64,000 bases of DNA from an uncultured Planctomycetota bacterium (lineage in GTDB: Bacteria > Planctomycetota > Planctomycetia > Isosphaerales > Isosphaeraceae). Below, piece after piece: positions 21,447 to 62,928 of this stretch (position 1 is the stretch's first letter; the number at the start of each line of letters is the position of its first letter). Where the stretch lies: contig CAVTTN010000002.1 of NCBI GenBank assembly GCA_963737655.1, positions 7,296,001 through 7,360,000 on the forward strand. Direction: 5' to 3'. Below the pieces are notes generated by a model. The model did no database searches, was not told where the DNA came from, and saw only the letters and a program-made list of their open reading frames with translations. The position numbers and the translations under genes are program-made.

Positions 21447-21534
21447 GAGGAATCGAGTCGGTCCGACTTCTGTCGGGCCGACCCGAGTCTCGAGTTTCGT
21501 AGGCCCGACTGAAGTCGGACCTGCTCGATTCCTC
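21447..21534. repeat. GTAG-type REPIN (inverted REP doublet)
   Basis: GAGGAATCGAG..GGTCCGACTTCTGTCGGGCCGAC is inverted against GTAGGCCCGACTGAAGTCGGACC..CTCGATTCCTC; each half internally palindromic. Confidence 0.75.
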
Positions 21535-36051: not shown

Positions 36052-36146
36052 CCGCGGATGACGCAGACGACTCAGATCGGAGATTTGACGACTCCGCTCC
36101 GAATTTGCCCAATCGGAATAATCTGCGTCATCCGCCAAATCCGCGG
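36052..36146. repeat. Imperfect triple-heptamer inverted repeat (CGCRGAT type)
   Basis: CGCGGAT-GA-CGCAGAC-GA-CTCAGAT versus ATCTGCG-TC-ATCCGCC-AA-ATCCGCG. Confidence 0.6.
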
Positions 36147-39798: not shown

Positions 39799-40107
39799 AC
39801 CGCCAAGGACCCGGAGGTTGAACCGCCAAGACGCCAAGATCGCCAAGGGAAGAGGAGGACAGAGGGAGAGAGGAAGACAGAGGGAGAGAGGAGACAAGAC
39901 AAAATAATTACATAAATTAATTTAAGATTCAATGAAATTGAATTTTCTCTTCACGCTTAGTCTTTCACTTTTTTTCTCCCACCTCTCTTTCACTCTCCTC
40001 TGCTCTCTCCTCCTCCCCTCTCTCCTCTCTCCTCCTCTCCTCTTGGCGATCTTGGCGTCTTGGCGGTTCAACTTCTCCCAGGCGTCTTGGCGGTTCAACT
40101 CCCCACC
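39784..40107. mobile_element. MITE-like inverted-repeat element (CGCCAAG triple heptamer), non-coding
   Basis: Perfect 31-bp IR (39817-39847 / 40042-40072), purine arm, AT core, pyrimidine arm, tandem duplications at both ends. Confidence 0.65.
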
Positions 40108-41186: not shown

Positions 41187-42207
41187 GGCGAGGTCTCCGC
41201 CAGGTCGAGCCGTCGGGCGACTCGCCGATCTCGCTGGCGGGCCCAGGCCCGCCATTCCGAGCCGAGCCAGGCCCGGAACCTCGGCTCGGCCACCAGGCGG
41301 CCCCCGGCGGCCGAGGCGATCGCGTCGAGCCGGGCGAGGTCGACGGGCCGGGGCGGCTCCTCGAACGCCGAGAGCAGCCAGGCCCGGCTCTCCGGCTCCG
41401 GCGCCACCTGCCGGGCCAGGATCGCCAGCAGCTCCTCGCCGTCGGCCTTCGCCTTCATCCTCGCGATCGAGGCCGGCGGCCACGGCGGAGGCTCGCCGAG
41501 CAGGGAGAGCGACGGCCCGGAAGACGGGACCGATTCCAGGGCGATCCGGGCCTGGCGAAGCTCCGGGCCGGCGTCCACGAGCGAGGTCTCGAGCAGGGTC
41601 GCCAGCAGGACCTCGGCCCGAGGCCGGACCTTCGCCGCGGGAGGAGCGCCGATCCGATAGGATTCGGCCACCGCCGAGACGAACGCCCGCGAAGCCTCCG
41701 AATCCGAGGCCAGTCCCACCCCTTCGATCGCCTTCGGGGTCGGGCCTCGGGCCCGCGATCGGACGAGCGAAACCGCGCGGCCTCCCGGACGAGCTCGGCA
41801 TACTCGGAGGCGAAGTCCGGGGCGTCCAGCAGCCTCCTCGCCGCCGAGTCGGTGGAGGGCTGCCCGATTGATGGGAATTCCTCGATCTCAACGGCCTTCC
41901 AGCCTCCGGGAAGCCGGCCCGCGTCGTCCGCCAGGCGATACGAGGCGAGCGGCCCGCCGAGGATGGCATCGATTCGCGTCGGATGATCCAGGACGCGGCA
42001 CGGATCGGCGCCCGGATCGACGCGAATCCATCGGATCGCGACGCCACGAGCCCGGGCCGCCGTTTCGATCGTCGAGCACTCCGGGCGGGGCCGGTTGGTC
42101 GCGACGATCAGGCGATCGCCGGCCGGTCGCGAGCAACCGACGAGAAGGATCACGATCCCCGAGAAAAGTGGGACTCGCCGACCGATCCGGGCGTCCCGGA
42201 TCGGCAT
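41183..42207 (-). CDS. Lipoprotein, probable divergent ABC substrate-binding protein (apparent frameshift about 41740)
   Basis: Lipobox LLVGC; ORFs 41455..42291 and 41183..41719 join into one about 340 aa protein directly upstream of the ATPase. Confidence 0.55.
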
Positions 42208-42271
42208 GCCCACGCCTTCGTGGGCCTGCCTTCGCCTTTTGCGGGCATGCCCACGAAGGCGAGGGCATGCC
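42203..42271. repeat. Inverted doublet of GGCATGCCCACG hairpins (REP-like)
   Basis: GGCATGCCCACG-CCTT-CGTGGGCCTGCC and GGCATGCCCACG-AAGG-CGAGGGCATGCC. Confidence 0.7.
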
Positions 42272-42287: not shown

Positions 42288-44186
42288 TCAATTCCTCGAC
42301 CCCGAGCTCGGCCGGGTGCCGAGGGTGACCTTGAGGGTCTCTTCCTTGCCGTCTCGCTTGACGACGACCTCGACCGTCTCGCCCGGCTTGTGGCTGGACA
42401 GGGCGTTCATGTACGTGTCGATGTCCTTCACGTCCTTGCCGCCGAACTTGACGATCACGTCGCCGCCCTTCAGGCCGCCCTTGGCCGCGGGGCTGTCGTC
42501 GTTCACGCCTTCGAGCTTCACGCCGCCGCCGTCGGGGCTGTCGGCGTAGTTCGGACGGGTGCCGAGGTAGGCCGACGACCCGCTCCGGCTCGCCCCTCCG
42601 CCGAGGATCGGTCCCCGGCCGAGCTTCTGGAACTTCGGCCGTTCCGGCCGGCGGATCAGGTCGAGCAGGAGCAGCTCGCCGAGGTCCGCCACCCTGGCCA
42701 TTCCCGGGAAGTTGATCTTGTCCGTGTCGTCGCTCGGGCGGTGATAGTCGGCGTGGGTGCCGGTGAAGAAGAAGAGGACCGGGATGTCCTTCATGTAGAA
42801 CGAGGCGTGGTCGCTGGCGAAGAATTCGCCCTGGGTCCCGACGATGTTCTTGGCGTTCAGGCCCTGGTCCTTCGCCAGGGACTCCACCAGGACATCCCAG
42901 CCGGGGCTGGTGCCGCTGCCGAAGACGGTCAGCTCGCTCTTGTCGTTCAGCCGGCCGACCATGTCGAAATTGATCATGGCCACCGTCTTATCCAGCGGGA
43001 ACAGCGGGTGATTGGCGTAGTATGCGGAGCCGATCAGCCCGCGCTCCTCGGCCGAGAAGGCCATGAAGACCACCCGGCGGGGCAGGGGGTCGCGGCGGGC
43101 GGCCAGGCGGCGGGCCATCTCCATGACGGTGGCGGTGCCCGAGGCGTTGTCGTCGGCGCCGTTGTGGATGCTGTGATTGCCCGGGGCGAGCGAGCCGAAC
43201 CCGCCGTTGCCGACGTGGTCGTAATGGCCCCCGATCACGATCGTCTCATCGGCCAGGGGGCCGGAGCCTTCGAGGACGCCGATCACGTTCTTGACCTTCA
43301 CCGGCGAGCGATCGACGACGACCTGGGCCGACAGCGTCTCGCCTTCCAGGGCGCGGCTCCTGGGCTTCAGGTCCGAATCGATCTGCTTTTCCAGCTCGGC
43401 GATTTCGGGCTGGCCGGCGGCCTTCAGGATCTTGTCGGCGAACTCGCGGGTGACCATGAAGAAGCCGAAATCGCCGCTGGCGCCGCCCCCGGCGTCGGAG
43501 AAGCCGATCAGCTCGTCCTTGGCGTCCTTCAGGCTGAAGCCGTCGTTGACGAGCAGGACGGCCTTGGCCCCGTGCCGCGAGGCGTTGCCGGCCTTGTGGC
43601 TGAAGGTGGCCCAGGTGGTGTTCTGCTTGCCCTGGAACGGGCCCTCGGGCTTGTCCTGCTGGGGCTTCCGGCGGATGATCAGGACGGCCTTGCCCTTGAC
43701 GTCGATCCCGTCATAATCGTCGTAATCGAGCTTGCGTTCCTCGTCCTTCGCGGTGATCCCGTAGCCGGCGAAGACCACGGGCAGGTCCTTGAACTCGCCG
43801 GGTCCGCCCAGGGCGAGCGGGGTGAAGTCCACCCCGGGTCGGGCGGTGAGCTTCTCCTCCTTGTCCTTCTTCGCGACGACCTCCAGGGTCTTCGGCTCGC
43901 CGAGCTTGCGGTCCCCGGGCAGCTCGAAGTGCTGGAAATAGCCGTCGGCGCCCGGGGCGGTCTTGAGGCCGACCTCCTTGAAGGTGGTGGCGATGTAGTC
44001 GGCGGCGGCGTCGAGGCCCTTGGTGCCGGGCCCTCGGCCTTCTCGGGCGTCGTCGGCGAGATAGGCGACGTCGGCCCGGAGCCGGGCCTGCGCGGGGCTC
44101 ACATAGTCGCCCGCGAACAGGCGGATCGAAACGCAAACCAGGGCCGTCGAGGCGATCCCGAGGCGAAGGGCGCGACGCGAGAGCAT
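42288..44186 (-). CDS. Secreted M28 family aminopeptidase with PA and PDZ domains
   Basis: GGHYDH, GADDNASG, SAEE.GL.GS, NFDMVG, SDH, YH.PSD, C-terminal PDZ. Confidence 0.93.
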   Translation of the reverse strand: MLSRRALRLGIASTALVCVSIRLFAGDYVSPAQARLRADVAYLADDAREGRGPGTKGLDAAADYIATTFKEVGLKTAPGADGYFQHFELPGDRKLGEPKTLEVVAKKDKEEKLTARPGVDFTPLALGGPGEFKDLPVVFAGYGITAKDEERKLDYDDYDGIDVKGKAVLIIRRKPQQDKPEGPFQGKQNTTWATFSHKAGNASRHGAKAVLLVNDGFSLKDAKDELIGFSDAGGGASGDFGFFMVTREFADKILKAAGQPEIAELEKQIDSDLKPRSRALEGETLSAQVVVDRSPVKVKNVIGVLEGSGPLADETIVIGGHYDHVGNGGFGSLAPGNHSIHNGADDNASGTATVMEMARRLAARRDPLPRRVVFMAFSAEERGLIGSAYYANHPLFPLDKTVAMINFDMVGRLNDKSELTVFGSGTSPGWDVLVESLAKDQGLNAKNIVGTQGEFFASDHASFYMKDIPVLFFFTGTHADYHRPSDDTDKINFPGMARVADLGELLLLDLIRRPERPKFQKLGRGPILGGGASRSGSSAYLGTRPNYADSPDGGGVKLEGVNDDSPAAKGGLKGGDVIVKFGGKDVKDIDTYMNALSSHKPGETVEVVVKRDGKEETLKVTLGTRPSSGSRN

Positions 44187-44323
44187 GCGGAGGGGTCCTT
44201 TGACAAGCAGGGCGCGGGGTGCGATCCTCACGATTCTCGACCGCTCGGGGCCCTTCGTCAAGACGCGGGAGTTGCGGCTCGGTGCCGACTTGGTGTAAAT
44301 TAATTCTTACGGAGAGGCGGGGG

Positions 44324-44749
44324 ATGCTGGAGAGTTCACCACGAAGCCACGAAGGGCACGAAGGAAGACACAAAGATGAGGCCAACGCCCTCTCTCGCGC
44401 CGTCGTCGGGGCGGCGATCGAGGTCCATCGGGCCCTTGGCCCCGGATTGCTGGAATCGGCGTATCAGAAATGTCTTTGCCGCGAGTTGACGTTGCGCGGC
44501 ATTCCCTTCGATAAAGAGGTCTCGCTGCCCGTCGATTACAAGGGAATATCTCTGGATTGCGCCTATCGGCTCGATGTCGTCGTGGGGGGATGCCTGATCG
44601 TGGAGATCAAGTCGGTCGAGCCGATCCATCCGATCCATGAGTCGCAGCTCCTGACTTACCTGAAACTTTCGGCGATCTGGCTCGGTCTACTCATCAACTT
44701 CAACGTGCCGCTCCTCAAAGACGGTCTCCGTCGGTTGGTTCATGGGTGA
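44324..44749 (+). CDS. GxxExxY protein (PD-(D/E)XK nuclease superfamily)
   Basis: GAAIEVHRALGPGLLESAY, YRLDVVV, IVEIKSV, QLLTYLK, GLLINFN. Confidence 0.93.
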   Translation: MLESSPRSHEGHEGRHKDEANALSRAVVGAAIEVHRALGPGLLESAYQKCLCRELTLRGIPFDKEVSLPVDYKGISLDCAYRLDVVVGGCLIVEIKSVEPIHPIHESQLLTYLKLSAIWLGLLINFNVPLLKDGLRRLVHG

Positions 44750-44854
44750 TCGCGGGCCGGATTCCCAAGAGGGCCTCGAGGACGTAACGAGACGCCGGAA
44801 TCTCTCCTCTGTGTCCGTCATCGTGCCCTTTGTGGCTTTGTGGTGAAATCTCCA
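44328..44854. mobile_element. Inverted-repeat-bounded element enclosing most of the GxxExxY gene
   Basis: 44328-44361 matches reverse complement of 44821-44854 at 31/34 nt; CACGAAG x3. Confidence 0.6.
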
Positions 44855-44884
44855 TTCGTTCGCTCACGCAAGGGAGGTCCCGCC

Positions 44885-46204
44885 ATGCGAAGAATGCTCC
44901 TGGCCGTCGTCCTGCTCGCCCCGGCCTCGACGGCCCTGGGTCAGGGGGCGAGCTCGGCGTTGAAGGACCGCGTCGACCAGCTCGTGGAGAAGCTCGGCGC
45001 CAAGGACACCGACGCCCGGGACGCCGCCGAAAAGGCCCTCGTCGGCCTCGGCGTGAAGGTCATCCCGCTCCTGCCCGAGGGGGCGAAGGTTCCCACGGAG
45101 GACGTGGGCAAACGGCTCGAAAAGGTCAGGGCCGCCCTGGCCGAGGACGCCGAGAAGGCCAGCCTGGTGGCCTCCCGCGTGACGATCCAGGCCAAGGGCA
45201 TCCGGCTGACCGAGGCGATCAAGCAGCTCCAGTCGCAGACCGGCAACGCCATCAGCGACCTGCGCGAGGCCAACGGCGAGGAGGTCACCAATCCCGCCTT
45301 CGACCTGGAGGTGCTCGACAAGCCGTTCTTCGAGGCCCTGGACCTCGTGGCCAAGCAGGCCGGGATCACCCTGAACTTCTACACCGGCGACGGCTCCATC
45401 GGCATCATGACCGGCGGGATGATGATGGAGGGCCAGGCCGCCGACGCGGCGAAGGAGACGAAGCCGCCGGCCGAGCCCATGGTCCTCTATCCCGGCCCGT
45501 TCCGCGTGCAGCTCAAGCAATACGCCTCGGCCCGCGATTACTCGACCGGCGCGGCCACCGCGAATGCCCAGTTCGAGATCGCCTGGGAGCCCCGCTTGCG
45601 CCCGATGCTCCTGGGGATGAAGGCCGCCGACCTGAAGATCGTGGATGACCTGGGCAACGAGGTCAAGCCGACGGTGACCGACGAATCGGGCAACGTCGTC
45701 CTCCGCCCCGAGAACCCGGTGGCCGAGGTGAACGTGAACATGATGGCGCCCGACCGCAAGGCCCAGGCGATCAAGTCCCTCAAATTCAAGGCCGACGTGA
45801 CCATCCCGGCCGGCCTCCGCACGTTCAAGTTCCCCTCGCTCTCGGCGAAGAACGCGACGGTCACGCAAGGCGACGTCGCGGTGACCCTCGAATCGGCCGA
45901 GGTCGATGAGCAGGTCTGGAAGGTCAACGTCCTGCTCGCCATGCCCGGCGAGGGCCCGGCGTTCGAGTCGTACCGCCAGGGCCTGTTCAACAACCGGATC
46001 TGGCTCCAGAAGGCCGACGGCACCCGGTTCGAGCACAACGGCGGCTTCTCCAACACCGCCAGCGACGGCGGCAAGCTCGGCTTCGAGTACCTCTTCGTGG
46101 ACGTCCCCGGCAAGCTCGCCGGCTACGGGTTCGTGTACGAGACGCCCAGCAAGGTGCTGACCATCCCCCTGGAATTCGAGCTCAAGGACGTGCCGTTGCC
46201 CTGA
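44885..46204 (+). CDS. Secreted hypothetical protein (HEAT-like N-terminus, STN-like modules)
   Basis: GGAGG RBS, signal peptide, RDAAEKAL helix pair, VTIQAKGIRLTEAIKQL and KPFFEALDLV segments. Confidence 0.75.
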   Translation: MRRMLLAVVLLAPASTALGQGASSALKDRVDQLVEKLGAKDTDARDAAEKALVGLGVKVIPLLPEGAKVPTEDVGKRLEKVRAALAEDAEKASLVASRVTIQAKGIRLTEAIKQLQSQTGNAISDLREANGEEVTNPAFDLEVLDKPFFEALDLVAKQAGITLNFYTGDGSIGIMTGGMMMEGQAADAAKETKPPAEPMVLYPGPFRVQLKQYASARDYSTGAATANAQFEIAWEPRLRPMLLGMKAADLKIVDDLGNEVKPTVTDESGNVVLRPENPVAEVNVNMMAPDRKAQAIKSLKFKADVTIPAGLRTFKFPSLSAKNATVTQGDVAVTLESAEVDEQVWKVNVLLAMPGEGPAFESYRQGLFNNRIWLQKADGTRFEHNGGFSNTASDGGKLGFEYLFVDVPGKLAGYGFVYETPSKVLTIPLEFELKDVPLP

Positions 46205-47585: not shown

Positions 47586-48549
47586 ATGCAAGGCATTTTA
47601 CTCGCGGCGGCCCTGTTCGCCGCCCCCGAGGCGCCCGACCCCGGCCCTCTCGTCCGTGCTTTGTGGCTCGTCCAGGCCCGGGGGACGCCCTGGGCGATCG
47701 ACCCGTCTCACGATTCTTCGGTCAAGGGCCGGCTCGCGAAGGGGCTGGACAAGGACCGAACGCTCACCCTGGCCGAGATGGAGGGCCTGATGACGCCGGA
47801 TGCCTTCGGCAAGCTCGCCGGGCCCGACGGCCGGATCGACGCGGCCGAGGCTCGCGAAACTCGATGCGGCGCTCGTGCCCGAGTCCCGATCACGGCTCCT
47901 CCCGGCGGTCCGCAATCATGCCGACGTGCTGACCACGGCGTTCGACCTGATCGACGAGCCGCATCGCGAGGCCGGGGCGACGCTGGCCGACTGGATCGTC
48001 AAGAACTATCGGCCCGGGTCGAAGCTGGACGTGATCGTGGTCTGCACCGGCAATTCGCGACGGAGCATCCTCGGCGCGACGATGGGGAACATCGCGGCCG
48101 ATTATTACGGGTTGCCCGAGGTCCGGTTTCACAGCGGAGGGACCGCCCCGAGCGCTTTTAATTCGCGGACGATCGCGGCCCTCCGCGAGATCGGCGTCGA
48201 GGTGGATCCGACCGGCGAGGAGGCCCCTCGCGGCGAGCCGAAGACGGCGAATCCGAAATCGCGGATTCGCTGGGGGACGTCCGGCGCCGAGGCGATCGAG
48301 TTCTCGAAGCGGTACGACGACCCGAGCAACCCAAAAGCCGGGTTCGCGGCGCTGATGGTCTGCTCCGAGGCCGATTCGGCCTGCCCGAACGTCAAGGGGG
48401 CGTCGTTGAGGATCTCGATGCCGTACCTCGACCCCAAGATCTATGACGGAGGGGCCTACGAATCGGCCAAGTACGCCGAAAGGCGCGACGACATCGGCCG
48501 GTTGATGCTCTCGGTGATGATGCAGGCGAAGAACCGGATCGCCCTGTAG
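47586..48549 (+). CDS. LMW-PTP/ArsC-like protein with N-terminal signal and EF-hand-like extension (apparent +1 base about 47850)
   Basis: VCTGNSRRS P-loop, SGGT, MVCSEADSACP, YLDPK; ORFs 47586 and 47800 join. Confidence 0.8.
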
Positions 48550-48730
48550 GGTGCATGAAATGCACCATCTTCGATTCATAAAATGGTCGAAGCTGGTGCA
48601 TTTCATGCATCCTACTCGTGTCGGCGATGATGCAGGCGAGGGACCGGATCGCCCTGTAGGGTGCATGAAATGCACCATCTTCGATTCATAGAATGATCGA
48701 AGATGGTGCATTTCATGCACCCTACTCGTG
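48511..48730. repeat. Two 110-bp tandem units each carrying a 70-bp GTAG REPIN
   Basis: GTAGGGTGCATGAAATGCACC...GGTGCATTTCATGCAYCCTAC at 48546-48615 and 48656-48725. Confidence 0.9.
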
Positions 48731-51345: not shown

Positions 51346-52008
51346 TCAAGGGTTCAACTCGGCCCGGGCCCATTCCATCAAGGAACGGAGGCGGCTGGTG
51401 TCGTCCATCCCTTCGCTCCTCGCCAACCAGGACGCGACCACATCGGCGGTGAGCAGGGGGAGCGCGAGGCTCCGTTCGATCTTCTCGTAGGCCCCGTCCG
51501 GGCCGAGGCGCCCGAACCAGAGCGCGCCGCCGTCGAATCGCCAGACCTCCGGGACTCCGAGGCCGGCATCGATCGGGAGCTTGGACCGCGAGTCCCGGGT
51601 GTTGTCCACCTCGATGGCCAGATCCGGAGGTGGGTCGCCCGCGTCGAGGTCGAGATCCTTCCGCCCTCGGACCGCCGGCTCGTTCGCGAGATAGAAGCAG
51701 TCGTCGGCTTCCTTCCCCTTGCCGCGATTTCGACCCATCCCCTTGCGTCGGAAGGTCGTCGATCCGGCGCTCGTGCAGGGGATGTTCAGGACGAGAGTCA
51801 CGGCGTGAACCACGAGGCCCAGGCCCCGAGTCTCTCGTTCGTGGCTGTAGGTCGGCGACATGAGCTCCAGCCTCCCGTCGTCGTAGGCCATGCGGAGGCC
51901 GTCGTTGCCCGGGTTGCGCCGGAGGGCCTCGTAGACCTTCCACGGGACGCCTTCCAGGACGATCCGGGGGCGGTCGAGCGTCGCGTCGGTCCGGGTGGTG
52001 GTCGCCAT
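51346..52008 (-). CDS. Uma2 family endonuclease
   Basis: LELMSP, EADDCFY, PPDLAIEVD, GVPEVWR. Confidence 0.9.
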   Translation of the reverse strand: MATTTRTDATLDRPRIVLEGVPWKVYEALRRNPGNDGLRMAYDDGRLELMSPTYSHERETRGLGLVVHAVTLVLNIPCTSAGSTTFRRKGMGRNRGKGKEADDCFYLANEPAVRGRKDLDLDAGDPPPDLAIEVDNTRDSRSKLPIDAGLGVPEVWRFDGGALWFGRLGPDGAYEKIERSLALPLLTADVVASWLARSEGMDDTSRLRSLMEWARAELNP

Positions 52009-62688: not shown

Positions 62689-62813
62689 TCGAACCGGCGG
62701 ACGACCTCCGCACCGAGACGTCACGAGGCGGCGTGTCCACACGGAGGTGGGCATGCCGCCCTCTTTCGAATCCCGGAACGGCGTCTCGCCCGCGAGGGGC
62801 CCAGGCCCATGTC

Positions 62814-62899
62814 GGGTGACATGCTTACGAAGACGTAAGCATGCCTTCGGTGGATGGTTGGACCGAAGACATGCTTACGAAGACGTAAGCATGCCACCC
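62814..62899. repeat. GGTG-type REP doublet
   Basis: ACATGCTTACG-AAGA-CGTAAGCATGCC at 62819-62845 and 62869-62895, bounded by GGGTG/CACCC; degenerate hairpin at 62727-62760. Confidence 0.8.
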
Positions 62900-62928
62900 G
62901 AAACCCGGGATCCTCTCGCGAGCCGGGC

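Follow-up and report, generated by a model that had tools for sequence, protein, structure and literature searches.

The closest described parallels to the locus presented here are systems in which a small gene stands beside, or between, repeats. In ORF-bearing intervening sequences of the 23S rRNA, with their four-helix-bundle genes, a long stem surrounds a small ORF, while insertion sequences (IS) with MITEs combine a gene between inverted ends with gene-free derivatives. Two enzyme-and-repeat systems come nearer. RAYT genes accompany REPIN repeats, in systems for which the names REPtrons and TIRtrons have been given (Bertels and Rainey, 10.1101/2021.07.10.451892; Di Nocera 2013, PMC3733652), and the Ssn nucleases, of the GIY-YIG type (cd10448), accompany NTS/SRM repeats and have been shown to cleave single-stranded DNA (ssDNA) (Chenal et al. 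2025, PMC11893778); both systems are described here from parts of these accounts. The GxxExxY family (PF13366) was entered as a family of unknown function in a review, likewise cited here in part (PMC3424549). No published description of arms around GxxExxY genes was found in the literature searched, which held few subscription journals and no supplements; those of PMC11893778 may matter.

The window, that is, the whole 64,000-nucleotide stretch of DNA that was analysed, contains one GxxExxY gene, set with its two arms between host genes:

42288..44186, - strand: M28 peptidase with PA and PDZ domains, the left neighbour, divergent (domain search)
44302..44313, + strand: host motif AATTCTTACGGA, conserved in front of the downstream gene in G001, G016, G020 and G065
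44324..44749, + strand: GxxExxY gene (PF13366 / TIGR04256), 141 aa (ORF and profile matches)
44328..44380, + strand: left arm, class B, overlapped by the 5' end of the GxxExxY ORF
44802..44854, - strand: right arm, an inverted copy with its core at 44807-44847 (inverted-repeat search)
44885..46204, + strand: conserved hypothetical protein, the right neighbour, without Pfam or NCBIfam match and present in 59/60 family genomes

The cassette lies between the AATTCTTACGGA motif, which is probably a host promoter element, and the start codon of the downstream gene. Its left arm has the leader TTCAC (44335), followed by CACGAAG heptamers at 1- and 2-nt spacing and by a fourth heptamer, CACAAAG, which stands 5 nt behind the third and ends at 44375. 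The arm pair (44328-44380 with 44802-44854; 53 nt, 81%) is the second-longest of the 176 inverted repeats in the window, and the right arm differs from the left at 7 positions across 41 nt. A preliminary description of this DNA had reported a 31/34-nt match between 44328-44361 and the reverse complement of 44821-44854; re-measurement gave the same value, with the differences G/T, G/A and G/A, two of which would indeed be G-T pairs on the + strand, and the weaker pairing described further on amounts to 12 of the following 20 nt. Translation of the left arm as the protein's N-terminus (SPRSHEGHEG) holds for this gene and was rejected as a family feature, an in-frame ATG standing behind the arm in 66/87 loci. 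Folded as RNA, the whole cassette (571 nt) forms one long stem (z = -3.67; 0/100 shuffles equally good). The promoter and terminator scan of the region returned a single site, directed at the M28 gene, and no terminator at the locus; an Rfam search returned no family at gathering score and no rRNA match, only sub-threshold miRNA-like hairpin matches.

The product of 44324-44749 matches PF13366 (E 1.8e-40, 138 bits against a cut-off of 22) and TIGR04256 (E 1.3e-42, 145 bits against a cut-off of 35); PF13366 is its sole Pfam match, and there is no second domain. In an alignment of 86 rows, E44, D84, E94 and Y112 are invariant, and K96 and Q108 are present in at least 90%. The motif Q-x-x-x-Y characterises RecB/Cas4-type nucleases, and single-stranded DNA is the substrate of several of them. 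The predicted structure (pLDDT 92.6) is a bare, minimal PD-(D/E)XK core. Its structural matches are weak and generic (best Z 7.8, rmsd 3.3, 98 aligned) and lie nearly all in the PD-(D/E)XK superfamily, with Cas4, lambda-exonuclease and Hjc-like entries at the top; Foldseek gave no match to the model at E 0.001, and no solved structure was related to the protein by sequence at E 10. The invariant catalytic residues and these matches agree with the superfamily assignment made in the preliminary description. The protein is unlike the GIY-YIG enzymes of the Ssn systems, for which ssDNA cleavage is reported in the account cited above; the GxxExxY protein is a predicted nuclease. It is also unlike RAYT, having no HUH/Y1 transposase; the seven Y1-transposase matches of this genome (G000) are located elsewhere, and inverted heptamer arms of the GxxExxY classes were found neither at them nor at its two four-helix-bundle genes. 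A PF13366 gene is present in 80/150 sampled genomes of the phylum and occurs patchily in many phyla and in archaea.

A PF13366 profile search retrieved three GxxExxY genes in this genome, 44-50% identical to one another, each enclosed by inward-pointing triple-heptamer arms whose class differs from gene to gene:

Class B: CACGAAG, gaps of 1 and 2 nt; gene at window 44324-44749
Class A: CGCCAAG, gaps of 1 and 2 nt; gene at G000:C2:1304607 (pgi-tkt junction)
Class C: CGCAGAT/CGCCGAT, gaps of 2 and 3 nt; gene at G000:C2:379449 (gltB-gltD junction)

In a blind triple-heptamer scan, classes A, B and C were the commonest of the genome. Class B comprises 30 paired elements and 2 solo arms (a row at 394761 was dropped as noise), with 29 pairs gene-free and 96-111 nt long, and class A comprises 42 pairs, 41 of them gene-free; a Markov-5 control gave 0 pairs for both classes at ≤2 mismatches. 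Class C has 7 pairs, 6 gene-free, at a threshold where chance matches begin. Each class encloses exactly one gene in the genome, always GxxExxY. As in RAYT/REPIN systems, in the parts of the accounts cited, the repeats are ~100-bp extragenic doublets of inverted arms, many per genome (10.1101/2021.07.10.451892; PMC3733652), and a single-copy, rarely moving enzyme gene stands beside its cognate repeats, with several such pairs per genome (10.1101/2021.07.10.451892). By a crude in-house gene caller, 23 of the 25 gene-free class B copies examined lie wholly outside predicted genes, and many gene-free copies begin <25 nt past a stop codon. No remnant of a GxxExxY gene was found inside the gene-free elements of this genome, and the possibility that the class B spacers derive from the inner ends of a gene-bearing element found no support (scores of 3.4 and 1.0, where the background reached 5.2).

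Two gene-free elements lie in the window:

39814..40075, no strand assigned: class A gene-free element with CGCCAAG arms, 92%, between convergent genes; its arms match those of the GxxExxY gene at G000:C2:1304607
36054..36145, no strand assigned: decayed gene-free element of the CGCAGAT type (class C/D; CGCGGAT/CGCAGAT); the nearest armed gene is that at G000:C2:379449

The preliminary description had noted both repeats, at 39.8 and 36.05 kb, as gene-free recurrences of the heptamer arrangement, and had proposed empty copies mobilised or diversified by the nuclease. They are real and carry no gene; since one is of class A and the other of a decayed C/D type, neither is an empty copy of the class B gene, and both are assigned to the other two GxxExxY genes. 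The nearest empty copies of the class B gene lie outside the window, ~5 kb ahead of its start and ~40 kb beyond its end. A further family, D (CGCAGAT, 9-nt period), numbers ~30 hairpins, without a gene that belongs to it in this assembly, which is 88% complete. Elements also nest: class D hairpins stand at the centre of 10/46 class A elements, and some class A and C elements hold REP-type doublets (examples of nesting are G000:C2:458338-458558, 1019414-1019617, 5014910-5015177 and 2355750-2356155).

Arms of this kind recur throughout the family. Among 130 loci, of which 50 came from this genome and its close relatives and the remainder were the best 80 of 494 from a genome collection (near-duplicates from G024 and G014 included), inward arms stood on both sides in 92, across many phyla, and any arm was present in 115; a few loci had outward arms or none. 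The enrichment expected by the preliminary description is clear with a motif-independent inverted-repeat score, which reached at least 15 in 68/86 loci and in 1/86 control positions 700-1100 nt away. For Ssn/NTS, the cited part of PMC11893778 likewise describes a small nuclease gene of a single domain with a genome-dispersed repeat on either side. The repeat itself is built differently: according to the same source NTS is a self-contained hairpin of ~30 nt, whereas the arm here is a non-palindromic run of phased heptamers, and only the pair folds. The arms are also unlike those of RAYT/REPIN, the consensus being TTCAC plus tandem heptamers (C-R-C-V-R-A-D across the family, as derived from the same loci), which contains neither an internal palindrome nor a GTAG or CGTC tag. 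The suggestion that G-T pairs would keep the + strand foldable fits the two such pairs at this locus; across the family, G-T wobble has no strand bias (69 sense versus 58 antisense in 71 cassettes, p = 0.37; 14 versus 17 in class A, 9 versus 12 in class B), and such wobble was discarded as a mark of RNA-level selection.

Arm class co-varies with protein clade, as had been anticipated: it changes 46 times on the protein tree, compared with 70 times in shuffles (0/1000 as low; 102 labelled rows), on a quick tree in which 71/127 forks are open. Because gene and arms are physically linked, this is expected from co-inheritance alone, and the match with dispersed copies is more telling. Across 150 genomes of the phylum, at least 20 arms were counted in 58/80 gene-positive and 5/70 gene-negative genomes, with medians of 42 and 5 arms; in 40 close relatives the medians were 47.5 and 5. 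In these counts related genomes are not independent, arms beside genes are included (median excess 33.5), and a reversed-pattern control was high in a few of the 150 genomes. Nine of the 80 gene-positive genomes have <5 arms. The dispersed copies follow the class of the gene as well as its presence, again in line with the preliminary description. In 41 close genomes, for which 72/73 gene matches were retrieved, class B arms number at least 10 in five: four carry a B-armed gene (one frameshifted) and the fifth a decayed arm. This last is G008, with 38 B arms and yet only the decayed arm at one gene. Class A arms number 93 in this genome and ≤6 in any other of the 41, while the five genomes with at least 10 arms of class E (spacing 1,1) all carry an E-clade gene. 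Private arm variants, such as CGGGGAG in G003, are the same at the gene and in the dispersed copies. In RAYT/REPIN systems, too, repeat number goes with the gene, and for Ssn/NTS the cited part of PMC11893778 reports that each homolog has its own repeat variant and that repeat abundance follows gene presence.

Exceptions to class matching are G001, with 15 C-type arms and no C gene, G015, G036 and G094, the last with 230 arms and no GxxExxY gene detected. No gene hidden in the orphan families was found in 11 stretches, nor in those of G094 and G172. The arms of G094 (L214-L219, L222) have multiplied as tandem arrays, arranged head to tail, with units of 70-130 nt; a CRISPR-like nature of these same-direction arrays was ruled out, the units being tandem duplicates.

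The individual copies carry a record of their maintenance. In 26 class B elements, the difference between arms is 1.8 nt inside one element and 5.6 nt from one element to another, and 67 deviations from the consensus are common to both arms of the same element while 47 are private. Symmetry reaches into the unique flanks in 5/26 class B and 12/42 class A elements, compared with 7/650 and 52/1722 cross pairs. Together, the concordant arms and the flank symmetry indicate that the arms of one element are copied or corrected from each other, presumably through a fold-back structure. No consistent direct repeat that could be a target-site duplication was found at the 26 B and 42 A elements, whose true ends are known only roughly. 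One gene-free class B hairpin lies in frame in an O-antigen-ligase-like ORF (L139:1998-2100, that is, G000:C2:2191997-2192099); the orthologs in G002 and G003 are ~40 aa shorter there and have no hairpin, the region being too diverged to fix its ends. Gene-free copies do, therefore, arrive at new sites.

The gene itself has a different history. GxxExxY adjoins the downstream gene in 3/30 loci, namely in this genome, in G016 and, decayed, in G044. The G016 gene, at the same site, is 71% identical and has CACAGAG arms; the two genes group together with weak support, and 30/46 fourfold sites differ. The M28 site is empty of GxxExxY in all three congeners and also in G004 and G065, a pattern that would fit either an old insertion with many losses or an old re-entry. 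At the gltB-gltD junction, the class C gene occupies a gap of 483 nt, compared with ~7-105 nt in 4/4 relatives, so that empty sites exist in relatives at both places, as predicted. At the class A site (pgi-tkt), G001 carries a DUF559 gene with CCCTCTCCCC-type hairpins instead (L211:1895-2392). The GC3 of the class B GxxExxY gene is 0.74, the host median 0.89. The gene site is often empty in congeners, which may set these genes apart from RAYT: with regard to the fixed-site inheritance of RAYT, this site is filled in G016 and G044 and vacant in three congeners, and the family tree mixes phyla. In almost every relative, another insert occupies the stretch that separates the M28 peptidase from the downstream gene (window 44750-44885 and the orthologous sites), including a class E hairpin in G001, a small ORF with REPs in G002 and an aminopeptidase-like gene in G003.

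Near-identical cassettes in multiple copies occur in G024 (L010, L031, L038, L046, L146, L152) and G014 (L049, L051, L052). They continue past the arms and reach a separate set of terminal inverted repeats; two of five G024 copies have 8-bp duplications, and we take the ends of these cassettes to resemble IS1595- and IS66-type elements. Because they are enclosed by IS-like ends, these cassettes are passengers and were set aside as proof of autonomy. For RAYT, multi-copy genes have similarly been attributed to IS ends acting in trans, as reported in Neisseria in the part cited (10.1101/2021.07.10.451892). Several of the multi-copy cassettes have stops, and one has a 2.3-kb insert. In collections biased to other taxa, the family was found on 8/72,556 plasmids and in 0/50,697 phages.

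An explanation has to account for a family that sits in phased triple-heptamer inverted arms, whose classes each have dispersed gene-free hairpins, whose copies reach new sites and whose arms are kept alike. The most economical reading, and one that we hold to be rather probable, is a repeat-specific nuclease whose cuts, followed by fold-back repair, would keep the arms symmetric and seed new hairpins while the gene moves rarely. The arms would be the recognition sequence of the encoded predicted nuclease, which would bind the phased heptamers and nick next to them once the element has formed an extruded hairpin or has become single-stranded. Fold-back or template switching during host repair could then copy the arms and keep the pair concordant, and the same repair might occasionally seed a new hairpin elsewhere. 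The gene would move rarely, persist for long at one site and often be lost or decay, as RAYT genes do. The pairing of a nuclease with cognate repeats had been proposed in the preliminary description and passed all the computational checks put forward there; the word 'autonomous' found no support. In that reading, gene and arms would be a mini-transposon, transposing as a unit and mobilising MITE-like empty copies. The empty orthologous sites (gltB-gltD, and the M28 site in G001, G004 and G065), the low GC3 of the gene and the patchy distribution across phyla would suit it. We nevertheless regard it as quite unlikely, given a single gene per class, the lack of target-site duplications at 26 B or 42 A elements, the near absence from plasmids and phages and the multi-copy cases that are IS passengers within separate ends; moreover, the M28 site is also occupied in two other, distant genera, G016 and (decayed) G044, synonymous sites being saturated and 30/46 fourfold sites different from the G016 gene. 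The locus also departs from IS/MITE pairs in having no transposase family match and no identical bursts.

Alternatively, the gene could be passive cargo: some other enzyme, or host repair alone, would spread the hairpins, with GxxExxY travelling inside one and co-occurrence reflecting joint arrival. The G024 and G014 cassettes within separate terminal repeats, where 8-bp duplications accompany two of the five copies in G024, are compatible with this, as are the orphan arm families, the seven Y1-transposase matches, the similar packaging of the DUF559 gene with its own hairpins in G001 and the four-helix-bundle genes inside inverted heptamer tandem arrays. We hold this reading to be unlikely: each class encloses a single gene in this genome, always GxxExxY, the catalytic residues are invariant, private arm variants match those of the dispersed copies, and the Y1 genes are without arms. 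Also quite unlikely, in our judgement, is an element acting at the RNA level, in which the transcribed arms pair and the insert is excised or tolerated in operons, like a 23S rRNA intervening sequence, the protein being RNA-acting or incidental. The single long stem of the cassette, the location of the other two genes at the gltB-gltD and pgi-tkt junctions and the many gene-free copies that begin close behind a stop codon would fit such a role. But because the wobble pairs have no strand bias, this reading has lost its one sequence argument; no Rfam family was matched at gathering score, and the class-matched dispersed families are left unexplained. The cassette, unlike 23S rRNA intervening sequences, also lies between protein genes and encodes a different protein. 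Any role that the hairpins have in RNA may be a side effect.

Compared as a whole, the GxxExxY cassettes seem to work like RAYT/REPIN and Ssn/NTS through a third, unrelated enzyme, a parallel that we consider a fairly probable one, and differ from both in enzyme and arm structure. This genome contributes three gene/class pairs that exist side by side, a correspondence of class that extends to relatives, the concordance of the two arms and the recognition that cassettes in several copies are passengers of IS. It also offers a candidate substrate for PF13366 and, with three paralogs and three arm classes, a built-in specificity contrast. If the reading as a repeat-specific nuclease is true, it would account for a kind of dispersed bacterial repeat that has gone undescribed, and the family could, like Ssn before it, become a source of very small, orthogonal, sequence-specific nucleases. 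More tentatively, with the odds somewhat against it, GxxExxY might be a large family of ~130-residue sequence-specific nucleases, with a readable heptamer and spacing code per clade, cutting at and propagating their own hairpins without transposase chemistry, and with several orthogonal pairs coexisting in one chromosome. If true, this would mean, with RAYT, Ssn, DUF559 and the four-helix-bundle genes as further cases, that enzyme-plus-repeat populations have arisen repeatedly and convergently in prokaryotes.

Several further arrangements were recorded. In the window, a Uma2 (PF05685) nuclease-fold gene lies at 51346-52008 on the - strand, and gene-free palindromic doublets of other families, some GTAG-ended (REP-like), lie at 48546-48725, 21447-21534, 62812-62901 and 42203-42271. 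In G107, arms enclose an unrelated 263-aa ORF without Pfam match (L223:125-1176), and another arm pair surrounds only the two ends of a decayed GxxExxY gene, with a REP-like insert between them (L224:941-1299). At G012:C8:137897-139210 (L162), a hairpin of class B type contains an IS1595-family transposase. The four-helix-bundle (TIGR02436) genes at G000:C2:5657569-5657892 and 1242288-1242608 (L225, L226) lie inside long inverted arrays of tandem heptamers (GTCAGTT; GCAGTGG, period 7), a packaging like that of GxxExxY with another repeat.
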